Part shown: piece by piece, positions 3,768 to 52,640 of the stretch
Layout of the letters: each line of letters starts with the position of its first letter
Numbering within the stretch: the stretch's first letter is position 1
Virus record (IMG/VR): IMGVR_UViG_3300028591_000094
Location: 1-64,000 of that record
Source: a virus
Lineage: Duplodnaviria; Caudoviricetes
DNA length: 64,000 nucleotides
Direction: 5' to 3' (one strand)
Program-made: the position numbers and the translations under genes
Notes under the pieces: model-generated
Databases searched by the model: none
What the model was told of the DNA's origin: nothing
What the model saw: only the letters and a program-made list of their open reading frames with translations

Positions 3768-4349
3768 TTAATCTTGATTAGATTTGTTATCGAATCTGAA
3801 GTTCATAACCGCGTCGGCAAGGTCTTTACCATCAGGGCAGAAACGCGCTATCATGTTGGCTGTCAAATTAGCGGACAGTCCGCTGTGACCGCTGTTCATG
3901 AAAAAGTCATACGCTTTCCGCAGGCGTTCATCGTAGGTCAAAGAGTCGTCACGCATAATCCTACAGGCTTCAAGCGTCTGGTCAAGCTCCATACCGTGAT
4001 ACAGGTCGCCGAGGCGGATGGGGACGATTTTGTCCCAATATTCAAGTTCTTCCTCTTTGACAAGTCCTCTTGCCTTGTTAACATATTCATTGGTTAGCTC
4101 GGGTATCTTGGCTTTATGTTCGGCTTCTTCCCGCTCATACGCCTCATGCCACTTGCGCTGTTCTTCGTCGTTTTCATACTTTGTCTTTCCTGTGACTTTC
4201 TTGTACGCCTCGTCCAGTGTGTCGGTCGAGAGAATTGTTTTGCCATTGAAGTTACAGCTGCACACCTCATTGGTGGTGTGTTCTATCGCTTTAAGTCTTT
4301 GCCACGCCTCAGCAATGGTTGAACCTGCACATATGTCCGCTGTTAGCAT
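3768..4349 (-). CDS. hypothetical protein
   Basis: 193-aa ORF. Confidence 0.7.
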   Translation of the reverse strand: MLTADICAGSTIAEAWQRLKAIEHTTNEVCSCNFNGKTILSTDTLDEAYKKVTGKTKYENDEEQRKWHEAYEREEAEHKAKIPELTNEYVNKARGLVKEEELEYWDKIVPIRLGDLYHGMELDQTLEACRIMRDDSLTYDERLRKAYDFFMNSGHSGLSANLTANMIARFCPDGKDLADAVMNFRFDNKSNQD

Positions 4350-11330: not shown

Positions 11331-11365
11331 AAAAAGGAGGCTGAAAAACAGTCTCCTTATTTTTT
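11328..11365. terminator. bidirectional intrinsic terminator
   Basis: A-run, AAGGAGGCTG-loop-CAGTCTCCTT, T-run between convergent genes. Confidence 0.7.
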
Positions 11366-13267
11366 CTTTAATGCTTCCCTCATTGTTGCCGTATAGTCTG
11401 GGACGCTGATTTTCTCATACGAGCCATCTTCTTTCAGCCAGATTATCTTTCGGTCGGATATTTCATATCCGAGCTGCATTAAACACAAGGAATAACAAGC
11501 CAACTGCATGATGTAATATGAATATGACTCGTCATAGAGGTTGGTGAACGGAGCTAGCGCCATCCCAGCAACATCGCCGTATTTTTCCTGAACCGAACGG
11601 TTGTAACTGCTTGTTAATTCTTTATTTGTGTTATGTGTAACTAACAACATTTTATCGGCTAGATAAGTATTGGTCGGGCTATCAACTCCAATGCATTTTG
11701 TTGGTACACTCGTACATGGTGTGATTGATGCTATGATTCTTCCAGTGTCATATGATTTCTTATGTGAAACAACATTTATTTTTCTTGACAGAAATGGATA
11801 GATATCAGTGGAAAAACAAACATCAAATTTGTCAAACGTTTTTTTCTTTACACAATTGTTACATTTTCCTTTTGCTTTAATAACAGTTGGTTTGATACCC
11901 AAACTAGTTAATAATTTTACACTAAAATTAACTTGTGATTCTCTTGTGGTTGATAAACTATAGCGGTTGCGTGTCTTGTTGTAGTACCCATCAGTATCCA
12001 TTAATCCCCTTAATAAATCTAACCTTTGTTCATAAGTGGAATTTGTAATATATATATCTGGTATGTGTTTATTATTCAACACTCCAAGTTCTCGTAATAA
12101 TGGACTTAGCCCATATATAACTCTTGTTTTAGCTTTACCGCAATGGACGCCATCGTTAACATTTTTTCCCACTTTATACCCTCTCTTTTCAATTTCATTA
12201 AAAATTTCATCATACATGTTTGTGACATATCCACTTGCTGAATGCCCATCACCAAGCCAAACACCAAATACATAAGGGTCTATTGGCAAATTTGTTAAAT
12301 TAGTGTTGTTTAAAGCTTTGTTTGTGAAAATTCTGACGGCGTAATAAGTTTTTTTTGCTTTATCCCCAATTTCGTTTAAATAAAGCATTAACTCATGAGC
12401 TGTCATTACTTTATCACGCCCCCAACGTTGTGAATAAACAAGCCATCTATGGTCGGTGTCACAAACAATGCTATAATTATCACTAAAATTTATCTTCACA
12501 CAAGGATTGTTGTGTACTTCCGATACGTGTATTATTTTAGTTTCATTGCCTTCTTTGTCATAAACAATATCATCAGTGGTTAGTTCACCCATCGGCTTAA
12601 AACCATGTGTGGTTAAAATTGGCGTGTCTAAAGGCAATCCCTTCCAATCATAAATTAAGAGTTTCCACTTTTCATCTTTCGCTTTATATGCAAACAGCAT
12701 ATCAAAAGTTCCAGCATAAGGAGCAACATCCCCATATTCTGGGGTTAACCCCATATACACCTGAGCCTCTGGTATGACAGGGTAAATGTTGTCAACGGTG
12801 AACAAATCCTCATAGAACTTCAGTACTGCATCCTGTTTATTTCCATATGGAATTAAATAGCCTTTCTCGTATTGAGGCTTGATAACATCGGGTATCAACT
12901 CAGGGTGACCCATGAAAAAGTACATATACGATTCGCCGTAAAGATGTGTTAAACTCCCGTTGTTTGTTGCCCTGACGTTGTTCTCCTCCCACATGCGCTG
13001 AACAGCCTCTTTTGTCATGTCGTGTTTCAACGCATAGTTGGCTGCCTTCTCGTCCCAATCCACATACGGCTGGAACTGATGGGTTGTGGCTGACACGCTG
13101 GGCAACGTAACAACGCTGCCGTCGTCGTTATGCAGGTAGTATATGTGCGGTCCTTCCTGGAACTCAAGTCTGCGGAACGAGTTCTTGATATTCTCCCTTA
13201 TAGCCTTGACCTCCTCTGGTTCTGGACGCCTTGCAAGTCTTTCTTCAATATCCTTAATGTTCAGCAT
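11357..13267 (-). CDS. PD-(D/E)XK (RecB-like) exonuclease containing an intein
   Basis: GSLTH, PEAQVY, AGTFDML, IYDWK|T, YIMQLACY; intein interrupts DWK-T. Confidence 0.85.
   Translation of the reverse strand: MLNIKDIEERLARRPEPEEVKAIRENIKNSFRRLEFQEGPHIYYLHNDDGSVVTLPSVSATTHQFQPYVDWDEKAANYALKHDMTKEAVQRMWEENNVRATNNGSLTHLYGESYMYFFMGHPELIPDVIKPQYEKGYLIPYGNKQDAVLKFYEDLFTVDNIYPVIPEAQVYMGLTPEYGDVAPYAGTFDMLFAYKAKDEKWKLLIYDWKGLPLDTPILTTHGFKPMGELTTDDIVYDKEGNETKIIHVSEVHNNPCVKINFSDNYSIVCDTDHRWLVYSQRWGRDKVMTAHELMLYLNEIGDKAKKTYYAVRIFTNKALNNTNLTNLPIDPYVFGVWLGDGHSASGYVTNMYDEIFNEIEKRGYKVGKNVNDGVHCGKAKTRVIYGLSPLLRELGVLNNKHIPDIYITNSTYEQRLDLLRGLMDTDGYYNKTRNRYSLSTTRESQVNFSVKLLTSLGIKPTVIKAKGKCNNCVKKKTFDKFDVCFSTDIYPFLSRKINVVSHKKSYDTGRIIASITPCTSVPTKCIGVDSPTNTYLADKMLLVTHNTNKELTSSYNRSVQEKYGDVAGMALAPFTNLYDESYSYYIMQLACYSLCLMQLGYEISDRKIIWLKEDGSYEKISVPDYTATMREALKKK
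11630..12640 (-). mobile_element. class-3 intein (337 aa) with LAGLIDADG homing endonuclease
   Basis: block A GLPLDTPILT, block B DHRW, block F TKCIGV, block G VTHN followed by T; GVWLGDG and LLRGLMDTDG motifs. Confidence 0.88.
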
Positions 13268-13922: not shown

Positions 13923-14352
13923 GTTGTAAATACCTATAAAAGTGTATCCCAACACAATTTGCGAAAAAATGCGCATACGCTACACCCGTTGTAAATACCT
14001 ATAAAAGTGTATCCCAACACAATTTTGCCCCCGTGTTTCCGTGGGTCTATCACAGTTGTAAATACCTATAAAAGTGTATCCCAACACAATTTAACAGTTC
14101 TGAGTTTTTGTACAATATAAGTTGTAAATACCTATAAAAGTGTATCCCAACACAATCGTGTCAACCTTCAATTCCTTCAACGTGTGTTGTAAATACCTAT
14201 AAAAGTGTATCCCAACACAATAGAGTGCAGAGTGGACGTTCTGACTGGCTCGTTGTAAATACCTATAAAAGTGTATCCCAACACAATATTTTAAAAATAT
14301 CATAGGTCTATTGAATGTTGTAAATACCTATAAAAGTGTATCCCAACACAAT
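13923..14352 (-). CRISPR. CRISPR array: 7 identical 36-nt repeats, 6 spacers of 29-31 nt
   Basis: repeat (minus strand) ATTGTGTTGGGATACACTTTTATAGGTATTTACAAC; + strand starts at 13923, 13988, 14055, 14121, 14186, 14252, 14317. Confidence 0.98.
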
Positions 14353-14425: not shown

Positions 14426-16741
14426 TTATTTCTCACCCCAATTGGTTGTTTTTCCCATCTTAAGCAGGATACCAGCTACCGTGGCTGGGTATTTGGTTGT
14501 AGCTTTCAGGAACGGTTGGTCGTACACCCCGTCCTTTTTTGACGGATGGAGACACATAACCTCTCTCATTTCCTGGTTTTCCACAATGTACGCGATGTTA
14601 AGGGCTGCGTTGATGTCCGCATTCAATCCGTTTTTATGATATTCCTGACCGTGGCGCACAAGCTTTTTATCAACCAGTTTCAATTTCTTTTTATTCTTGT
14701 TTTTCGGGTCAACCGTCTCCTTGACATATATTGTGTGTGTCTTGGAGTCCATCTGTGACGTATATGACGGCGGCACCAGAACGGTCTGTATCGAGCCGTT
14801 GTTTCCGAGTTGTATGAACTTGTCCTTTACATCGGCGAAGTGGATGTTCTTTAACACCTTGTTGTTGAACAGGCTCTTGGCTTTTTGAGCCTCGCCAGCT
14901 GCCGTGAGAGTTATGTCGGTGATATTACCGTCGCCATCAGTCTTGAAATCATACCAATCCTTATTGCTCTCGGTCATTACCGCGTTATATTTGTCCGAAT
15001 CGACCTGTTGTCCAAGTAATCCATAGTACGACAGCAGCGATTTCGGTGACTTTACAGTTGAATAGTTGTCGAATTGCGAGGTTGTCAGATTTTCCAGGCC
15101 CACCGTGTCGTAATTGTTGTCGCCAAACACCTTGTAGGCATATGTGATGATATTGTCCCTACAGCCTATGATTCCAGCGACAGCGTTGTCCATCTTGGCA
15201 ATCAGTTCCTGGGCTTCCCTGGTTTGGATAAACGGATTCTCCCAACGGCGTTTGTCCATCGTCTCCTTGGTCTCCGTGGACTGGTCGTTGTATCCCTGGG
15301 CATCGTCGAACGCTTTCTGGAGTTCGGCATATTTTTTGTACAGGACGAATGAAGCCTTGCACAGGGCACGGAGTTTCTTCACGTTATGGATATAGTTGAC
15401 AACGTGTACGTCGTCGCCCTCATACTGTTTGACAAGATTGTTCAAAACCTTCTCTACGCACTTTTCGGCATTGTTGTCAGCTTCGTTGAACGGAAGACCT
15501 TTTTTGCTAAGGTATCTGGTGTAAAGCAGATTAAGTTCCAGCGGGCAGAAAGACACGTATTTGGACAAATCCTTGTACAGTTTTAAGTCGGACTTGGATA
15601 TGTATTTCACAAATTCTTCATCCTCAACTAAAGCTTTATATATGTTGACATAACCCTTCACCCATCCGTTGTCCTTTATGCTGGTCTGCATCAACATGTG
15701 CTTGGTATTAACATCGACTCCGACAACATTTTTAATCTCATGTTCAGTCTTTTCAAAGTTAAGTCCGTACGGGATGTGCACATACACGTTACCGTTCTTA
15801 ATGGTGAATATTATGGTCTGCCCATGCTGGTTGATTATGTCGGCAATGTCAACAAGTTCGCCGTTGACCCAGCGGACGGTCTGTCGATTACCCCACAACC
15901 GTATATCATAACTTCTCTTGCGGCATGGAATATGCAGGTTATATGCGCAGGTTCCCGCAACCCTGGTCAGCGTATATGGGCTAGTGCTGTTGGTTGTTAT
16001 CGTCATGGAGAATTTGTCACGGTTCAATTTCAACCCTTCGAACTGTTTAAGTGCCTCCACACCAGCGTTCATAGCCATTGTGTCGATGAGGTCGGTATGG
16101 GTCTGGTAGTACTCGCACAGGGTTTTCATACGGAACATAAGCTTGTCGCTGACATTGTCCTTCATTTCCAGATACTTCAAATGCTCTGCAAAATATTCGG
16201 GCTTGCCCCATTGCCTTCCATTGGTGAACATCTCATATATCACCTGGGACTGAATGGTTTCCTCAGTTGACTCTTCATTGATTGTTACCTTTTTGATAGA
16301 AGGCTTAAGGCTTGACATTTTCGTGGCATAGTTGCTAAATACAACTTTGCAATAACCGTTTCTTCTATAATCAGACTGACTGAAACCGAAAATATTGCCA
16401 GAATAGTTATCAATGTTTTGGGCAACCACAGCACAATACAGGGCATTGTTACGACTATTGAGGTCAAACTTGCCTTTCATAAAAATTGTATACAACGGAG
16501 CTTCCTTGTATTTGTAGCACAACTCGTAGTACACACAATTCTTGTTGTCAATATACGGCAAAAGTACTTCGCCAATCTTGTTTGTCAGATTTGAACATAT
16601 CCACTTGTTCACCAAGTCTGCATAAGCTTGAGCCTGGCGTATTCCCGCCTGAAACATTGCCCGTACTTCTGGCAGCATGTTCGTTAACATTATAACGGTT
16701 TTGTTAAGGTTGATTGTTGTGTCTGTTCTCTTGTTAGCCAT
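14426..16741 (-). CDS. casLambda: phage-encoded compact type V CRISPR effector, CasLambda family (771 aa)
   Basis: RuvC-I VGVDVNTKH, RuvC-II GLENL, RuvC-III NGLNADINAALNIAY; family-like blocks YRRNGY, QVIYEM, KGYVNIYK, SFCPLE, IHFADVKD, TSQMDS; adjacent array. Confidence 0.92.
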   Translation of the reverse strand: MANKRTDTTINLNKTVIMLTNMLPEVRAMFQAGIRQAQAYADLVNKWICSNLTNKIGEVLLPYIDNKNCVYYELCYKYKEAPLYTIFMKGKFDLNSRNNALYCAVVAQNIDNYSGNIFGFSQSDYRRNGYCKVVFSNYATKMSSLKPSIKKVTINEESTEETIQSQVIYEMFTNGRQWGKPEYFAEHLKYLEMKDNVSDKLMFRMKTLCEYYQTHTDLIDTMAMNAGVEALKQFEGLKLNRDKFSMTITTNSTSPYTLTRVAGTCAYNLHIPCRKRSYDIRLWGNRQTVRWVNGELVDIADIINQHGQTIIFTIKNGNVYVHIPYGLNFEKTEHEIKNVVGVDVNTKHMLMQTSIKDNGWVKGYVNIYKALVEDEEFVKYISKSDLKLYKDLSKYVSFCPLELNLLYTRYLSKKGLPFNEADNNAEKCVEKVLNNLVKQYEGDDVHVVNYIHNVKKLRALCKASFVLYKKYAELQKAFDDAQGYNDQSTETKETMDKRRWENPFIQTREAQELIAKMDNAVAGIIGCRDNIITYAYKVFGDNNYDTVGLENLTTSQFDNYSTVKSPKSLLSYYGLLGQQVDSDKYNAVMTESNKDWYDFKTDGDGNITDITLTAAGEAQKAKSLFNNKVLKNIHFADVKDKFIQLGNNGSIQTVLVPPSYTSQMDSKTHTIYVKETVDPKNKNKKKLKLVDKKLVRHGQEYHKNGLNADINAALNIAYIVENQEMREVMCLHPSKKDGVYDQPFLKATTKYPATVAGILLKMGKTTNWGEK

Positions 16742-45192: not shown

Positions 45193-46587
45193 TTAGAACA
45201 ACCCGCCGTACATCAGTGTCCTATGCAGGAAGTAGTGGTTGCCAGTCATACCATCCTTGATTGATTCGTTCAGACTCCTGGGGTAGTTGTCCCTGTAGCT
45301 CTCGGACTTCTCCTTGGCTTCGTTGATTATGCTGTTGAACTTCTCGCAAGCCTCTTTGAAATATTCGAACGGCACATTGAACTTATAGTTCTTGCCGATT
45401 GCCGTGTAGAAGTCGTTCTGTTCGTCACCGACACGCTCGGATTTCTCCTGCGTCTCCACGAAGTTGTAGCCGTCGTGTGTGTCGTTTATCATGTACAGGT
45501 CGAAAAGCGTCTTGCCACCCTCCTTGCGACCGAATATGAAACTCTCCTGTTGGAACATGACACCGAGGCGCTTGGCTTCATCGAGCGAGATATTGAATAT
45601 AATCTTGGAGTTCTCCGTGTTTCCGTACTTACCCCTCACAGGCTCCCAGGCGTAGTTGCCCTGCTCGAGATAAGAGTTTATCGACTTGTTGGCTCTGCGG
45701 TTATCGGCTCTTCCGCTAGACTGCCCCATCGGGTTCTCGCCAGTTATTATGCAGAACGTTTTAACGTTGTCCACGGACTCTCCCCCTACCGCGTCAAGCG
45801 CAGCCTTTCGGTTCTGACGTTTCTTGTTTCTGGATATTTCCTCAAGACCTTCGGTCAGCTCGTCAAGGTTGAAAAGCATTCCTGTGCCACTGGTTCCGTA
45901 ACCGTGTGGTTCAGCCATCGTGTCACGTCTATTCTGCATGTACTCCCTCCCCTTCTCGCGGTATTCTGGGTCGTTGTACCTGTCGTTGTATTCTTCCTCA
46001 GCCTCGGCGTCGGTCTCATGTTGGAATTTTCTGTCTTTGGCTTTGGCTATGGCTCTCTGTATCGCGTTGTCGACAGCCTCGCGGCTCACGCCGTCCTTGG
46101 CATGCCACTTTGTTACGCTGTCCCCAACACTGTCACCCTCGGGCTCGACCTTTGTGAACAGGTTGTTCTTGTTCTCGTTCACATCCCCGTGCTCGGTGTG
46201 TGCTTCCAGAAACGACAGCATGTCCAGGAGGGTTCTCTTTTTGGCGCCGTCAATATCAACAGGACGCTTCTCGCCGTCCTGGTTTTCAAGGAAACTCGCC
46301 CCTTTCGCGGAAAGTCGCAACGTCATGTCGTCCACCGTGGGTATGAGATAATCGCCGTCCTCCGTTCTCTGGTACACCTTGCGGCGAACCATATCGACCA
46401 AGTCGTCGAACATGGTGGAATCCAGCTTGATGGTATCTCCGAGACCGTCTATCGACTCACCCAAATAGTTCTTGCCGTCGTTGTAGTAAGTGCCGACATT
46501 CTTCAGTATGTTTTCAACAAATCTATTCTTTTTGTCCATGCCTAATAATGTTTTGTTTAATGTTAATTTATAATAAATATCTAACAT
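45193..46587 (-). CDS. putative virion-internal protein with DUF3293-like C-terminal domain
   Basis: IITGENP...GKYG..E.S......L...FQQESFI; LGES, VNEN, LTEG, INEA, LNES motifs; start may be MDKK. Confidence 0.7.
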   Translation of the reverse strand: MLDIYYKLTLNKTLLGMDKKNRFVENILKNVGTYYNDGKNYLGESIDGLGDTIKLDSTMFDDLVDMVRRKVYQRTEDGDYLIPTVDDMTLRLSAKGASFLENQDGEKRPVDIDGAKKRTLLDMLSFLEAHTEHGDVNENKNNLFTKVEPEGDSVGDSVTKWHAKDGVSREAVDNAIQRAIAKAKDRKFQHETDAEAEEEYNDRYNDPEYREKGREYMQNRRDTMAEPHGYGTSGTGMLFNLDELTEGLEEISRNKKRQNRKAALDAVGGESVDNVKTFCIITGENPMGQSSGRADNRRANKSINSYLEQGNYAWEPVRGKYGNTENSKIIFNISLDEAKRLGVMFQQESFIFGRKEGGKTLFDLYMINDTHDGYNFVETQEKSERVGDEQNDFYTAIGKNYKFNVPFEYFKEACEKFNSIINEAKEKSESYRDNYPRSLNESIKDGMTGNHYFLHRTLMYGGLF

Positions 46588-46595
46588 CCGAAGAA

Positions 46596-48242
46596 TTAAA
46601 CATAATCAAAAGTGTTCATTACACCTTTATTACATTCACCACTTGCTTTCTTCTGCAAGTCTCTTCGGAACGATAGCAATACCTCTTTTACTTTCTCACG
46701 CTTGATACGCTTCGGTTCAAAAGATTTGTTATCACGTTGTTTTAAGAGTTTCTGCTGCAACACGGTTACAGCCACTCTGTTCCTTATATTAATCGCCGCA
46801 TTAACGTCGGCGTTGTCTTCATGCCCACATTCGATACATTCAAACGTTTCCTGATTCGGTCTATTCTCATCTTCTATACACCCACACACGGGGCACATCT
46901 TCGACGTATAACTCGCTTGGACTGTGGATACGGCGATATTGTACTTCCTCGCAATGTGTTCCACTTCATCTTTCAATGAACTGATGCTCAAGGCTCGGAC
47001 AATGCGATTGTAGTTAAGGTCATCGTTTACCTTGTCCTTGATGTACGAGCGACCGAACTGACCGTTTAGGTCTTCCATCACTATATGGTTCACTCCCTGT
47101 TCGGACAACTCCTTGCACATCGTCGCAATGGTTTGTTTCTCAATCTCGAGTATCTTGTGTGATATGATGTCTATCTTCTTCTGTCTACGTTTCGACGGCT
47201 TCCAATCACGACCGTATTGTTTCTTCAAAGTGTCCATACACTTGGATACCTCTGCATAAGCCTTGAGCAAGTCGCGGTCGTAATCATATGTGAGAGCACT
47301 AGAGAGCGTGAACATGTTGTGCTTGACATTCACATCGATACCCACGATATTGCTACCTGCCTCAGGAATGTATCTGTCCTGTTTCTTCGTGAGGATTACG
47401 ACCACCTGTTTCTTCCTCTCGTTGAATACTACGGTATATTCATAATCAGGATTCGATTTCTCATAGTCATGGATGCTTCCGTGATAGTCCTTGTTGAACT
47501 TGACTGGTATGTCAAAGGATTTTCTGCCGAGGCTGCTCAACGATACGAATGCGTTGATTACAGACCCGAAACGAGAGTTATAATCTATTATCAGTTTCTT
47601 ACGACTCCTGCCACGGAATGTGAGGGACTTGAATTCAATCGGATGTTCGGTGTACTTTTTGTAGGTGCGTTCCCTCCTTGACAGTGCAAGCGAATAAAGT
47701 CTATCGAATCCGAACTTCTCTATCTCACCGAGGATTGTCTTGTAGAACATCTGTTTCTTCTTGTCCGCCTTCGGCATTTGTTCGTTGATGTAGTCAATGA
47801 TTCCTTCATTACCGTATCTCGCGAGATATGAAAGTGTGATTGTGAGCGATGAGGACGTTTTGGTGTTTCTCACCTTCTTGAAGTCGCCTTTCTTATTCTT
47901 TTTGGTGTCGCGTTTGTACAGTTCACAACAGACGTAGTGGATGTTTTCGAATGTCAGTTTATGTTTAACGTTCTCGAATTTATTTTGGTAGGTGACGATA
48001 ACATCTTCGTAACACTGTTTGTCGAATGACGACGGCAGTTCTGAATATTTAGCCCGCATTTCCTTGAGGAAATCGAAGGTTGAAACGTCGAGGTAGTCAA
48101 ACAAGTGCTCACAGACGAATTGGGATATAACGTTCTTGTGTTCGCGGATTTTGACAGCAATATCAAGCAGTTCACCGTACTTCTGTGCAGTGAGGTTGTT
48201 CGAGACGAACCTTTTGCTGTATATGCTGTCGTGCTTAATCAT
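46596..48242 (-). CDS. tnpB: large TnpB/Cas12f-like RuvC nuclease (about 548 aa)
   Basis: GIDVNVKH, VMEDL, YTSKMCPVCG, CIECG, NADVNAAINI; ATG 48242 follows a structured leader. Confidence 0.85.
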   Translation of the reverse strand: MIKHDSIYSKRFVSNNLTAQKYGELLDIAVKIREHKNVISQFVCEHLFDYLDVSTFDFLKEMRAKYSELPSSFDKQCYEDVIVTYQNKFENVKHKLTFENIHYVCCELYKRDTKKNKKGDFKKVRNTKTSSSLTITLSYLARYGNEGIIDYINEQMPKADKKKQMFYKTILGEIEKFGFDRLYSLALSRRERTYKKYTEHPIEFKSLTFRGRSRKKLIIDYNSRFGSVINAFVSLSSLGRKSFDIPVKFNKDYHGSIHDYEKSNPDYEYTVVFNERKKQVVVILTKKQDRYIPEAGSNIVGIDVNVKHNMFTLSSALTYDYDRDLLKAYAEVSKCMDTLKKQYGRDWKPSKRRQKKIDIISHKILEIEKQTIATMCKELSEQGVNHIVMEDLNGQFGRSYIKDKVNDDLNYNRIVRALSISSLKDEVEHIARKYNIAVSTVQASYTSKMCPVCGCIEDENRPNQETFECIECGHEDNADVNAAINIRNRVAVTVLQQKLLKQRDNKSFEPKRIKREKVKEVLLSFRRDLQKKASGECNKGVMNTFDYV

Positions 48243-48432
48243 TCGATAAAAAAAAGAGGTTTGATTCGGAGTTGCAAAATGTGGAAGCTGGCAACAGGGA
48301 ATTAACCTCAATATGTCTACTTTGATAGGCTTCCACCTCTATCATAATATAAATATCACGAAGTTTTGAAAATGTTTGTTTTTTATTGATTATTTTTGTT
48401 ATTTATTTTGTTTGCTGTTGTATATCCCGCTT

Positions 48433-49260
48433 TTACATTACAGGAATGATGTTGAGTGCATCGAATCTTGCCCTGCCGTCCTCGTTCGTCAGGCAAAACG
48501 CAGGATGTATAATCCAAGGATGGCGCATGTACTCCATGGTGCCGTTCTCGCAAGGGGAAGTCATCATAATGTCCTCTTTGTAGATGAACCTGCCGAACTT
48601 CAAACTGTCGTCGAAACTGTGCCAGTCAACCCCCTTCTCAGCTTTCAGTTTCTCAATCTGCTGGTCGGCGTTGAGCTTTTCCAACTGTTTGTGGGGAAGA
48701 TAAGCCTGGGCGGTCTGAGCCTTGGAGTTACGGATGCAGTCTATTTGTCTGTGCAGGAGCCATCCGAACACATCGTTATAGCATGGTACGTTCCAACATT
48801 TGCAGTCAAATTGGGCTAACTTAAGGCTGGATATAGCGTTTTTGCATACCCCAATGTTAACCGAATTGGGACTTTCGGCTATCGAGCCCAACAGACGAAG
48901 TGTCATCAACTGGTTGAACTTTCCCGTTGCTAAAGACGCTATGATTGAGAGCATCTTGGTAAGGCGGTACCCGAAGAACGACTCGGTTGAATCGTTGTCA
49001 AAGTCGGTCAACACCAGTGAAATCTCATCGGATTGGACATATGCGAACTTGCACCCCGAAACGTTTTCGCAAACATATCTGGCGGTCTCATTCATCATCT
49101 CGATAAAATCGCCGTCAAACGGTTTCCTGAACTTGTTTTTGATAAGGTGCGAAAACGAACGCCCGTCCAGCATCACCATCACATAAGACCTGGGCATCAA
49201 CTTATAGTCGGTGAGTCCGCGATAGTAGTTCATTCTGTCTTTCAAAGTTTCGAATCTCAT
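48433..49260 (-). CDS. Thg1-like tRNA guanylyltransferase / 3'-5' polymerase
   Basis: LDGRSF, YVQSDEIS, FDCK, RQIDCIRNS, K.G.F motifs. Confidence 0.92.
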   Translation of the reverse strand: MRFETLKDRMNYYRGLTDYKLMPRSYVMVMLDGRSFSHLIKNKFRKPFDGDFIEMMNETARYVCENVSGCKFAYVQSDEISLVLTDFDNDSTESFFGYRLTKMLSIIASLATGKFNQLMTLRLLGSIAESPNSVNIGVCKNAISSLKLAQFDCKCWNVPCYNDVFGWLLHRQIDCIRNSKAQTAQAYLPHKQLEKLNADQQIEKLKAEKGVDWHSFDDSLKFGRFIYKEDIMMTSPCENGTMEYMRHPWIIHPAFCLTNEDGRARFDALNIIPVM

Positions 49261-51171: not shown

Positions 51172-52640
51172 CCGTATAGAAAAATCTAATAAAAACTGGA
51201 ATTATTAGTTTTTCCTTCTTGCTTCAACGAATCACTGCTTTTTAGGTTTGTTACCAAACGGTCATCCACAGTTGGGTTCTCCGCAAGCGTAAATTCGGTG
51301 TTACGGACACCTATTGTTCTTATTCCTTCATTCAAGATGTTGATTGCAGCATTCACATCCCTGTCGTGATGCTCGCCGCAAATCGGACAAACCCATTCAC
51401 GGTCGCTCAAAACCAAGTCCTTCTTGATGTAACCGCACTTGTGGCAGGTCTTGCTGCTCGGATAGAAACGGTCAACCAAGACAACCTTCTTGCCGTTTAG
51501 TTCCGCTTTGTCGGTCAGAACTTGTCTGAACCGATACAATCCGATTTCTTGTATCGCCTTTGAAAGTTTATGGTTCTTCAACATTCCTCTGACATTCAAA
51601 TCCTCCATACAAACCAAGTCGTAATCTTTAAGCAGGCAATTCACGACATAGTAGATGTATGCTTCCTTTTGGTTAGTCAATCGTTCAAACGCCTTCGCAA
51701 TTCTGACACGTTGTTTCTCTCGGTTGTGTGAACCTTTGACTTTCCTTGACAGTTGCTTCTGCAACCTCTTGACTTTTTGCTCTTGCTTTTTGAAGAAGTG
51801 CCTGTTATCAAAGACCTCACCGTCACTTGTAATCACAAAGTCCTTCACTCCGAGGTCTATACCAACGCATTGTTTAGTGTGTTTGAATTTGATAAGTTCA
51901 TCCTGCGGTATGTCAACAAGGATTGAAAGGAAGTAGTTGCCGCTCTTGGTTCTCGAAACGGTAGCACTCCTTATGCAATCTTTGTAGTCTTGAAGTCTCT
52001 CGTAATACAAGTCCGAACATCTAAACTTGATGTCCTTGAGGTCTTGAGTTAAAGTTATTTTTCTTTCATTGAATGTGTTGCGCTTTGAAATCGCTTCTGA
52101 CGGAAACAGTGCCGACTGCTTGTCCTTCTTTGACTTGAACTTCGGGAATCCGTTGTGCTGCTTGAAGAACTTTGAATAAGCGTCAAGCATTTGACGGATT
52201 GACTGTTTCATCACCTTTGTGTTCTGTTCTTGCAACCAAGCATAGTTCTCGTCTTTCAATAATGTTCCGTGAAACCACTTGGAAATGTCAGTTAGTTTAA
52301 GATTGGTCTTATCCTCGTCATAGGCATTGCGCTTGAATTCAAGGGTCTTGTTATACACAAAGCGGTAGCATCCAAGTACCTTGTCAAGTCTTGTCTGCTG
52401 TTCCTTGTTCGGATATAACCTTACCTTGATTCCTCGCAACATATCAATAAAAAAGAGGCATTAAACTTGCGGTTAAAAATGTGGACAGAACCGACAAGGA
52501 TAAAACCTCTATATATCTTATGTTATTTAGAAACGACTGTCCACTTTCGTTTCTTTATTTATAAATAGTCTGAAACTACAATATATTTATACGAGTTAGT
52601 TTTTATCAGTTTTTCATAGATTTTATTAGATTTTCAAGGA
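51172..52640 (-). mobile_element. non-autonomous tnpB element (IS607-like ends), boundaries approximate
   Basis: AAAATCTAATAAAA in inverted orientation near both ends; right end TACGG shared with the remnant at 53482. Confidence 0.55.
51186..52442 (-). CDS. tnpB: RNA-guided endonuclease TnpB
   Basis: HTH RLYPNKEQ...GCYRFVYN, GIDLG, MEDL, SSKTCHKCG, CPICG, DRDVNAAINI. Confidence 0.95.
   Translation of the reverse strand: MLRGIKVRLYPNKEQQTRLDKVLGCYRFVYNKTLEFKRNAYDEDKTNLKLTDISKWFHGTLLKDENYAWLQEQNTKVMKQSIRQMLDAYSKFFKQHNGFPKFKSKKDKQSALFPSEAISKRNTFNERKITLTQDLKDIKFRCSDLYYERLQDYKDCIRSATVSRTKSGNYFLSILVDIPQDELIKFKHTKQCVGIDLGVKDFVITSDGEVFDNRHFFKKQEQKVKRLQKQLSRKVKGSHNREKQRVRIAKAFERLTNQKEAYIYYVVNCLLKDYDLVCMEDLNVRGMLKNHKLSKAIQEIGLYRFRQVLTDKAELNGKKVVLVDRFYPSSKTCHKCGYIKKDLVLSDREWVCPICGEHHDRDVNAAINILNEGIRTIGVRNTEFTLAENPTVDDRLVTNLKSSDSLKQEGKTNNSSFY

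Follow-up and report, generated by a model that had tools for sequence, protein, structure and literature searches.

An enlarged TnpB carried by a non-autonomous IS607-family element of a huge gut phage, and its likeness to CasLambda

The Cas12 subtypes are considered to have arisen from separate TnpBs. CasLambda (Cas12l) is described in the literature we searched as derived from TnpB independently of the bacterial Cas12s, with no transposon relative named, and no paper describing a CasLambda-like IS607 TnpB family of 548 residues was found there. Here we analyze such a tnpB gene, at positions 46596-48242 (minus strand) of a stretch of viral DNA of 64,000 nucleotides (hereafter the window; positions 1 to 64,000 of IMG/VR record IMGVR_UViG_3300028591_000094). 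The window belongs to a 168-kb record, estimated to be 45% complete, of a huge (about 370 kb) sheep-gut phage. As the closest described systems we compared CasLambda (PDB 8DC2, 9IZM-9IZS), Cas12f (Cas14) with the Cas12f-like TnpBs, ISDra2 TnpB (PDB 8EXA, 8H1J) and the IS607 elements that carry TnpB, among them ISFba1 with its RAGATH-18-derived reRNA (PMC11061315) and the Clostridium botulinum IStron (doi 10.1101/2023.11.20.567912). In kind, the locus is an IS607 TnpB element; its distinctive parts are an enlarged, CasLambda-like REC lobe, confinement to huge phages and a leader that replaces tnpA. Because this REC lobe is like the N-terminal third of CasLambda and the two proteins share a phage lineage, the family is the best candidate so far for the transposon stock behind CasLambda.

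The 548-residue protein and its family

The tnpB frame is intact and encodes 548 residues counted from its ATG, or 571 if an upstream TTG is used, comprising WED, an enlarged REC, RuvC and a zinc-finger TNB domain. The same WED-REC-RuvC-TNB fold was obtained in an AlphaFold2 model built with 72 family sequences (predicted local distance difference test, pLDDT, 90.5). The catalytic Asp303 of RuvC-I, within GIDVNVKHN (47334-47336, surrounded by NIVGIDVNVKHNMF), is invariant among 72 family members and aligns with the catalytic Asp of all comparison groups. The family alignment and the comparison-group alignment likewise place Glu390 of RuvC-II within HIVMEDLNG (47073-47075) and Asp479 of RuvC-III within NADVNAAINI (46806-46808). 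The zinc finger of the TNB domain, C450, C453, C469 and C472 (46827-46895; all of these features lie on the minus strand), has the form CxxC...CxxC (SYTSKMCPVCGC...CIECGH). Across the 72 members, D303, E390, D479 and the four Cys are invariant or nearly so, in agreement with the initial annotation, a note made from the sequence without database searches, which had reported a retained zinc finger and a complete set of catalytic residues.

The sole Pfam domain detected is the Cas12f1-like TNB domain PF07282 (63.2 bits against a cut-off of 26.3, E 2.6e-17). The NCBIfam model guided_TnpB (NF040570) matches residues 195-489 with 109.8 bits (cut-off 100), and since the match begins only at residue 195, about 110 extra residues lie ahead of the usual TnpB core. 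The size difference noted initially, 548 residues against 418 for the ordinary TnpB nearby, was confirmed for both frames. On sequence grounds, the product is a TnpB-type RNA-guided DNA endonuclease, with cleavage activity predicted.

Its relatives, of about 547-550 aa, constitute a distinct, enlarged TnpB family of some 550 residues. We obtained 2021 matches in a collection clustered at 90% identity, many of them from contigs of 200-400 kb; clustering at 50% identity left 135 clusters at E<1e-30 with full-length coverage. A one-per-species genome collection (185,579 species) yielded no more than five loci, including one on a probable phage contig of 360 kb, and no family member was found among GenBank phages. 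The element hardly occurs outside huge phages of gut and rumen Bacteroidota. Four of the five other phage records with the family (G756-G759, behind loci L003, L010, L008 and L004) also encode a full CasLambda; by coordinate arithmetic, about 3-5 kb separate the element from the CasLambda gene in G756 and G757. At locus L018 (JBGVNW010000068.1, a 360-kb contig binned into a Bacilli metagenome-assembled genome, MAG), tnpB is split into frames of 270 and 177 aa, and the TnpA remnant upstream consists of a helix-turn-helix (HTH) only; this contig is probably a huge phage binned into a bacterial MAG. In the trees described below, ordinary-sized relatives (390-445 aa) nest inside the 550-aa family, not outside it. 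The long form may be ancestral in the clade, with the short forms being secondary losses or truncated gene calls.

The element, its ends and its predicted guide RNA

The gene lies within a whole non-autonomous IS607-family element of 1844 bp without tnpA (about 46587-48430, minus strand), delimited with a contig of sequencing run X2 and 12 related loci. In the comparison of these loci, GGGATA opens the left end (with 48428 as its first G) and TTCTTCGG closes the right end (with 46588 as its last G). The left-end region (48338-48428, minus strand) begins GGGATATACAACAG and is 91% identical to positions 3794-3883 of locus L013; the base that precedes its opening GGGATA in the flank is a pyrimidine at 9/9 junctions. 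The right end, TATGTTTARTTCTTCGG at 13 loci with immediate sequence divergence beyond, sits 8 nt past the tnpB stop codon. A GG core was found at both junctions, without inverted repeats, at all loci with conserved ends. DNA homology among the loci is limited to the segment from about 220 nt upstream of the ATG through 8-10 nt past the stop. Among ten IMG/VR loci of the family, no flanking gene matches those flanking the element in the window, and the unit of about 1.9 kb recurs in unrelated contexts, including two copies in one phage.

At L013, which encodes an 89% identical TnpB (P0008), a serine-recombinase TnpA of 298 aa lies 4 nt upstream of tnpB and matches the IS607 transposase model NF033518 with 190 bits (cut-off 110, 2e-56). 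Upstream of this tnpA we located a stretch of 91 nt that is 91% identical to 48338-48428 of the window. TnpA, or an HTH-only remnant of it, also precedes tnpB at L004, L011 and L018. Given that close relatives carry TnpA, we class the window copy as a non-autonomous IS607-family derivative, one that kept the left end and has a leader of about 104 nt at the place of tnpA. The initial annotation was correct that tnpA, an adjacent array and 3' intergenic space are missing (window and record contain no tnpA, no array adjoins the gene, and the ATG of the next gene follows 9 nt past the stop), but the picture of a tnpA-less orphan is not supported by this assignment.

The structured 5' leader that replaces tnpA (48243-48346, minus strand) contains a long-range stem in which GTGGAAGC (48336-48329) pairs with GCTTCCAC (48288-48281). 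This stem covaries in alignments A3 and A9, with six of its 8 bp showing compensatory change and none broken. A GAGG...CCTC pairing and a T-run just ahead of the ATG complete the leader, which could serve as a terminator, as an insulator or in translational control. Similar structured leaders precede the second tnpB of the window (52443-52570, minus strand) and the tnpA-less copies at L003-L010 and L015, and identity between the leader of the 418-aa gene and those of 548-aa members from other phages is about 80%, which suggests that a left-end-plus-leader module is exchanged between elements. In other run contigs, set in differing contexts, just the right end or part of the left end is shared. 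A left-end piece of 35 nt (48379-48413) is carried by contigs of runs X3-X5 that diverge on both sides, with a summed depth of up to about 40; the left end seems to be shared by other elements of the rumen community. Upstream of the 418-aa tnpB, beside a tRNA-Arg gene, lies a sequence that begins GGGGTACATAACAG and resembles the GGGATAACAACAG left end. No Rfam family matches the leader or the 3' scaffold described next.

Whereas the guide had initially been called unidentified, with overlap of the 3' end, an upstream position or supply in trans as options, the first of these options matches a predicted scaffold, and the guide is not missing but would follow the ordinary TnpB arrangement. The omegaRNA (reRNA) scaffold most likely lies inside the last 190 nt or so of tnpB, finishing at the right end (46587-46778, minus strand; covariation among 11 loci), with a predicted guide of about 16-20 nt beyond TTCTTCGG. 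By the TnpB rule, this guide segment would be the flank immediately past the right end (46567-46586, minus strand), where the next phage gene begins; homology among the loci stops there. In the alignment of the last 250 nt from 11 loci, identity per column is 81%, well over that of the rest of the gene. RNAalifold predicted a multi-helix fold in which the terminal UUCUUCGGA and UCCGAAGAG, located some 85 nt before it, form a stem around two hairpins, with two more helices upstream of this stem. Of the 55 pairs, in which 97% of cells are paired, 18 are compensatory, compared with 10.8±1.8 in shuffled alignments (0/500 reach 18), and in slid controls the paired share is 41-48%. Synonymous codon identity is highest, at 0.74, across codons 481-510 and lies at 0.45-0.58 in the rest; conservation at synonymous sites is elevated across codons 466-510 alone and does not extend to the very end of the gene. 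The scaffold ends at TTCTTCGG(A), the point at which inter-locus homology stops. A scaffold inside the 3' end of tnpB, with the guide in the flank (46586 downward), explains why almost no 3' intergenic space is present.

Insertion is shown directly by a DNA contig of run X2, from the metagenome of another study, that carries the empty site: position 46586 is linked to 48431 through seven other letters, and the 1844 nt of the element are missing. On the gene strand, this allele reads …TAAAA-AGCGAAC-TGTTAGAT… (the natural empty-site sequence is also written …AAAAAGCGAACTGTTAGAT…), and the predicted precise joint reads …TAAAAGC-GG-ATGTTAGAT…. Searches for the empty site through the flanking proteins in IMG/VR returned nothing for the DUF3293 neighbor and two loci with a different gene order for the Thg1-like neighbor; in GenBank phages, the sole match was 267 nt of a Lak-phage.

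Three observations weigh against reading 46587-48430 as an element with its TnpB and a 3' omegaRNA. tnpA is absent from the window and from the whole 168-kb record, itself about 45% complete. The empty allele differs from the predicted precise joint (GCGAAC vs GCGGA), which makes the core and the transposon-adjacent motif (TAM) provisional; strain divergence, imprecise excision or an escape allele could account for this mismatch. Metatranscriptome contigs (runs X4 and X5) have 100% identity to parts of the open reading frame (ORF) and leader, yet as contigs they cannot show transcript, RNA end or strand. Taken together, we nonetheless consider the element, TnpB and omegaRNA reading quite likely.

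The absence of tnpA from the record would also be in keeping with a domesticated, immobile phage nuclease directed against competing phages or host DNA, whose transposon features are relics, as would the single copy per record here, the intact and conserved gene and the structured leader, which suggests regulated expression. Such a nuclease is hard to reconcile with a 1.9-kb unit that occurs in unrelated contexts and twice in one phage, with close relatives that retain TnpA, with the existence in nature of both occupied and empty alleles, and with a guide position tied to the flank, as in selfish TnpBs; we regard domestication as quite improbable.

For the mobile element, a mode of action can be inferred from established TnpB biology (Karvelis 2021, PMC8612924; IS607 IStron study, doi 10.1101/2023.11.20.567912). 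The omegaRNA would be cut from the 3' part of the tnpB mRNA itself, and the TnpB-omegaRNA complex would recognize the empty site, in which a TAM closing the left flank (pyrimidine-GG) is joined to the right-flank sequence. During co-infection, it would cleave phage genomes carrying the empty site, and repair by recombination with occupied genomes would copy the element in, letting it persist and spread in the manner of a homing endonuclease. To transpose to new sites, the element would need the serine-recombinase TnpA, provided in trans from full-length copies. In this mode, TnpB elements would act like homing endonucleases in phage populations. With about 550 aa, the family is also a compact candidate nuclease, probably monomeric and with a short TAM.

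Kinship with CasLambda

CasLambda is encoded in the same window (771 aa, 14426-16741, minus strand; E 3e-123 to PDB 8DC2), and all three nuclease genes that the initial annotation had placed together in one genome, those for an ordinary TnpB, the 548-aa protein and CasLambda, were identified. Using Foldseek against the PDB, we found that CasLambda and CasLambda2 occupy ranks 1-4 for the 548-aa model (E 2.9e-17, TM-score on the query, TMq, 0.62), with Cas12f and TnpB at TMq 0.37-0.45. VIA-align of the whole model gave Z 20.8 with 472 residues aligned for CasLambda (8DC2), compared with 16.1 for AsCas12f (356 aligned), 15.5 for ISFba1 TnpB and 14.5 for ISDra2 TnpB. Residues 1-295 were then modeled separately (pLDDT 95.4) and compared, without Foldseek, with 48,161 PDB representative chains. 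The top chain was again CasLambda 8DC2 (Z 14.0, 248 residues aligned with chain residues 8-327), together with CasLambda2 at 13.7, and the best Cas12f and TnpB chains reached Z 10.0 with 157-173 residues aligned. That the N-terminal half alone matches CasLambda best indicates that the enlarged REC lobe is what both proteins share. The comparison of REC regions by AlphaFold, which had been proposed as a check, therefore has CasLambda as the nearest solved structure for the whole protein and for the WED/REC half. In the reverse search of the ESM Atlas, the cluster structurally nearest to CasLambda is a viral PF07282 protein of 536 aa (475 residues aligned vs 388 for ordinary TnpBs); an Atlas cluster with identical listed descriptors is the third feature match of P0001, the 548-aa TnpB of the window.

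The motif resemblances noted from the sequence alone are present. The CasLambda of the window has VVGVDVNTKHMLM, YTSQM and NADINAALNI, the latter two corresponding to YTSKM and NADVNAAINI in the 548-aa TnpB, and the likeness exceeds chance, with a profile-profile E of 1.9e-18 restricted to 88 columns (RuvC-II, TNB, RuvC-III). G-x-D-x-N-x-K is invariant or nearly so in the family and in CasLambda, and the combination of DxN and RxxQE occurs in 35/35 family plus CasLambda rows and is rare among other rows. Position 305 is N and 464-465 are QE in these two groups; in nearly all other rows, 305 is G, and 465 is mostly R or S. The RuvC-I motif singled out initially is thus, at the level of aligned residues, a real discriminating signature, yet one also found in ordinary-sized relatives within the clade.

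The CasLambda hidden Markov model (HMM) scored family members with up to 33.6 bits (median 9.5) and short relatives with up to 24, true members lying at 360-950. Comparators remained lower: ≤7.2 for 21 Bacteroidota TnpBs, ≤4.1 for 28 archaeal TnpBs, ≤5.5 for 12 DPANN Cas12f2 or Cas12f-like proteins, and ≤15.1 for every PDB chain outside CasLambda, Cas12f among them. Across 301 Bacteroidota genomes, 16 of which have ordinary TnpBs, the sole match to the CasLambda profile was a fragment of the 548-aa TnpB family; there was no match in 299 genomes of a second phylum, a scan without positive control. A single-sequence CasLambda search of 5.8 billion proteins returned 17 proteins (clusters at 90% identity), none of them from the 548-aa TnpB family.

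A maximum-likelihood (ML) tree of six groups joined CasLambda with the family plus its short relatives (Shimodaira-Hasegawa-like approximate likelihood ratio test, SH-aLRT, 100; stem 0.97), with DPANN Cas12f-like TnpBs as the next outgroups. The protein does not nest in an ordinary TnpB clade unrelated to CasLambda, the outcome that had been named at the outset as counting against the kinship. An approximately unbiased (AU) test retained the alternative that groups the family with eight DPANN Cas12f-like rows without CasLambda (log-likelihood difference 19, p 0.22). We discarded a first AU test (p 1.7e-5), in which the constrained group had been made to include four unrelated DPANN rows as well, and trees with only ordinary TnpBs as comparators, which effectively comprise three groups and are uninformative on sisterhood.

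Fold, profiles, signature residues, ML topology and ecology all point to kinship with CasLambda, towards which we lean slightly. Of the initial proposal of a distinct family near the CasLambda ancestor, the distinct family, the nearest structure and the joining in the ML tree stand, but sisterhood is not secured by the AU test. The term intermediate, also used initially, is valid for the architecture only. We estimate a probability of about 0.45 that CasLambda descends directly from this transposon lineage, the REC-enlarged TnpBs that IS607 elements carry in huge phages of Bacteroidota. On the way to CasLambda, one tnpB copy inside these phages would then have acquired the insertions in RuvC, shed its zinc finger and taken up a repeat array in place of the omegaRNA.

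Several results weigh against the kinship with CasLambda. The N-terminal profiles align collinearly but weakly (P 0.004, compared with 0.29 for CasLambda against ordinary TnpB), and the tree and profile comparisons sampled part of the Cas12 and TnpB clades. Others would fit an ordinary mobile IS607 TnpB whose likeness to CasLambda comes from common membership, with Cas12f, of a broad derived clade and from an independently enlarged REC lobe, with CasLambda arising from an unsampled lineage. The family profile favors Cas12f over CasLambda2, scoring OsCas12f with 100 bits, AsCas12f with 84, CasPhi with 52, CasLambda2 with 37.5 and ISDra2 TnpB with 28; the retained AU alternative has DPANN Cas12f-like TnpBs closer to the family; the sequence match to CasLambda is restricted to the 88 columns of RuvC and TNB; and the CasLambda CRISPR repeat appears unrelated to the omegaRNA, having no similarity to its end on either strand against shuffles. 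Such a broad-clade origin accounts less readily for an N-terminal half that prefers CasLambda (Z 14.0 vs 10.0, with about 75 more residues aligned), for a reverse Atlas search that starts from CasLambda and gives the 548-aa TnpB family first, for the CasLambda HMM, which ranks the family highest, and for the co-occurrence of family and CasLambda in phages. We consider it rather unlikely.

Descent could also have run the other way, with the family arising once CasLambda had lost its array and its insertions in RuvC and had been recaptured by IS607; in other clades, a Cas12f has been proposed to have reverted to a TnpB-like system (PMC10691335). The family retains the four zinc-finger Cys that are absent from CasLambda and is far more diverse (135 clusters at 50% identity vs 17 clusters at 90% identity), which together make this direction unlikely, and CasLambda forms a single long branch beside the family, not around it. 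We judge reversal extremely improbable. Under direct ancestry from the transposon, the same genomes would to this day contain both donor and product. With a TnpB family that is still mobile, has the REC architecture of CasLambda and shares phages with it, the step from transposon to CRISPR becomes testable with living endpoints. Insertions that lengthen the heteroduplex, mutual acceptance of RNAs and the change from omegaRNA to repeat can thereby be addressed.

Neighboring features and comparison with known systems

Directly upstream of the element lies a gene for a Thg1-like tRNA-His guanylyltransferase (48433-49260; Pfam 7e-27), and downstream a gene with a DUF3293 domain (45193-46587), whose assigned ATG (46585-46587) stands directly 3' of the last G of the element (…TTCTTCGG|ATG). 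The natural empty-site allele has CTG in place of this ATG. The insertion may have created or replaced the start codon of the DUF3293 gene; alternatively, translation may really begin at the Met of codon 17. The ordinary TnpB of 418 aa is encoded at 51186-52442 (minus strand; NCBIfam guided_TnpB, 309 bits). Within its 3' end (51216-51287, minus strand), RAGATH-18 matches weakly, with 24.6 bits against a gathering score of 44.9 (E 0.41), at the location expected for an ISFba1-type IS607 reRNA (PMC11061315). The window has 28 tRNA genes within 37914-61917, all on the minus strand. The only array of the window, the CasLambda CRISPR array, comprises 7 repeats of 36 nt (13923-14352, no strand assigned) and lies beside the CasLambda gene, 30 kb from the 548-aa tnpB; a ACACUUUU hairpin likeness between its repeat and the omegaRNA 3' end, first picked out by eye, was rejected as chance (local alignment p 0.05-0.98 vs shuffles, both strands). 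Adjoining the CasLambda locus, an ORF of 636 aa with a LAGLIDADG homing-endonuclease domain (11357-13267, minus strand; 1.1e-07) is a second kind of selfish nuclease in the window.

Like IS607 elements with TnpB, relatives of the window element carry a serine-recombinase TnpA (MerR-type HTH plus resolvase domain) upstream of tnpB, have GG at both junctions and no inverted repeats, and have a predicted scaffold that extends over the 3' end of tnpB as far as the right end; among IS607 elements, too, there are derivatives without tnpA. The family differs from them in a TnpB of about 550 aa vs about 390, in a REC lobe some 80 aa larger, in a scaffold without Rfam match, in a structured leader instead of tnpA and in its near-confinement to huge phages. 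ISDra2 TnpB shares the domain order and catalytic triad, and its omegaRNA comes from the 3' end of the gene; unlike the 548-aa TnpB, it is partnered with an IS200/IS605 Y1 transposase and measures 408 aa, and it lies farther away in structure and profile (Z 14.5, 28 bits).

Cas12f and the Cas12f-like TnpBs are the closest solved relatives by sequence, with the NRxxQxxFxCxxCGxxxNAD motif and a similar size. Cas12f is, in contrast to the 548-aa TnpB, CRISPR-associated and dimeric, with a smaller REC lobe and a structural Z of 16 vs 20.8, and the sampled DPANN Cas12f2 and Cas12f-like TnpBs have DxG, not DxN. In structure, no solved protein matches better than CasLambda, whether the whole 548-aa TnpB or only its WED/REC half is compared. 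CasLambda also shares the G-x-D-V-N-x-K-H, YTSxM, RxxQE and NADxNAAxNI signatures as well as the phage lineage. Unlike CasLambda, the 548-aa TnpB is transposon-borne, has no adjacent CRISPR array and is 223 aa shorter, with a spacing of 87 aa vs 207 between RuvC-I and RuvC-II (D303-E390) and of 89 vs 159 between RuvC-II and RuvC-III (E390-D479); it retains the zinc-finger Cys and lacks the REC2 and REC3 insertions that CasLambda has within RuvC.

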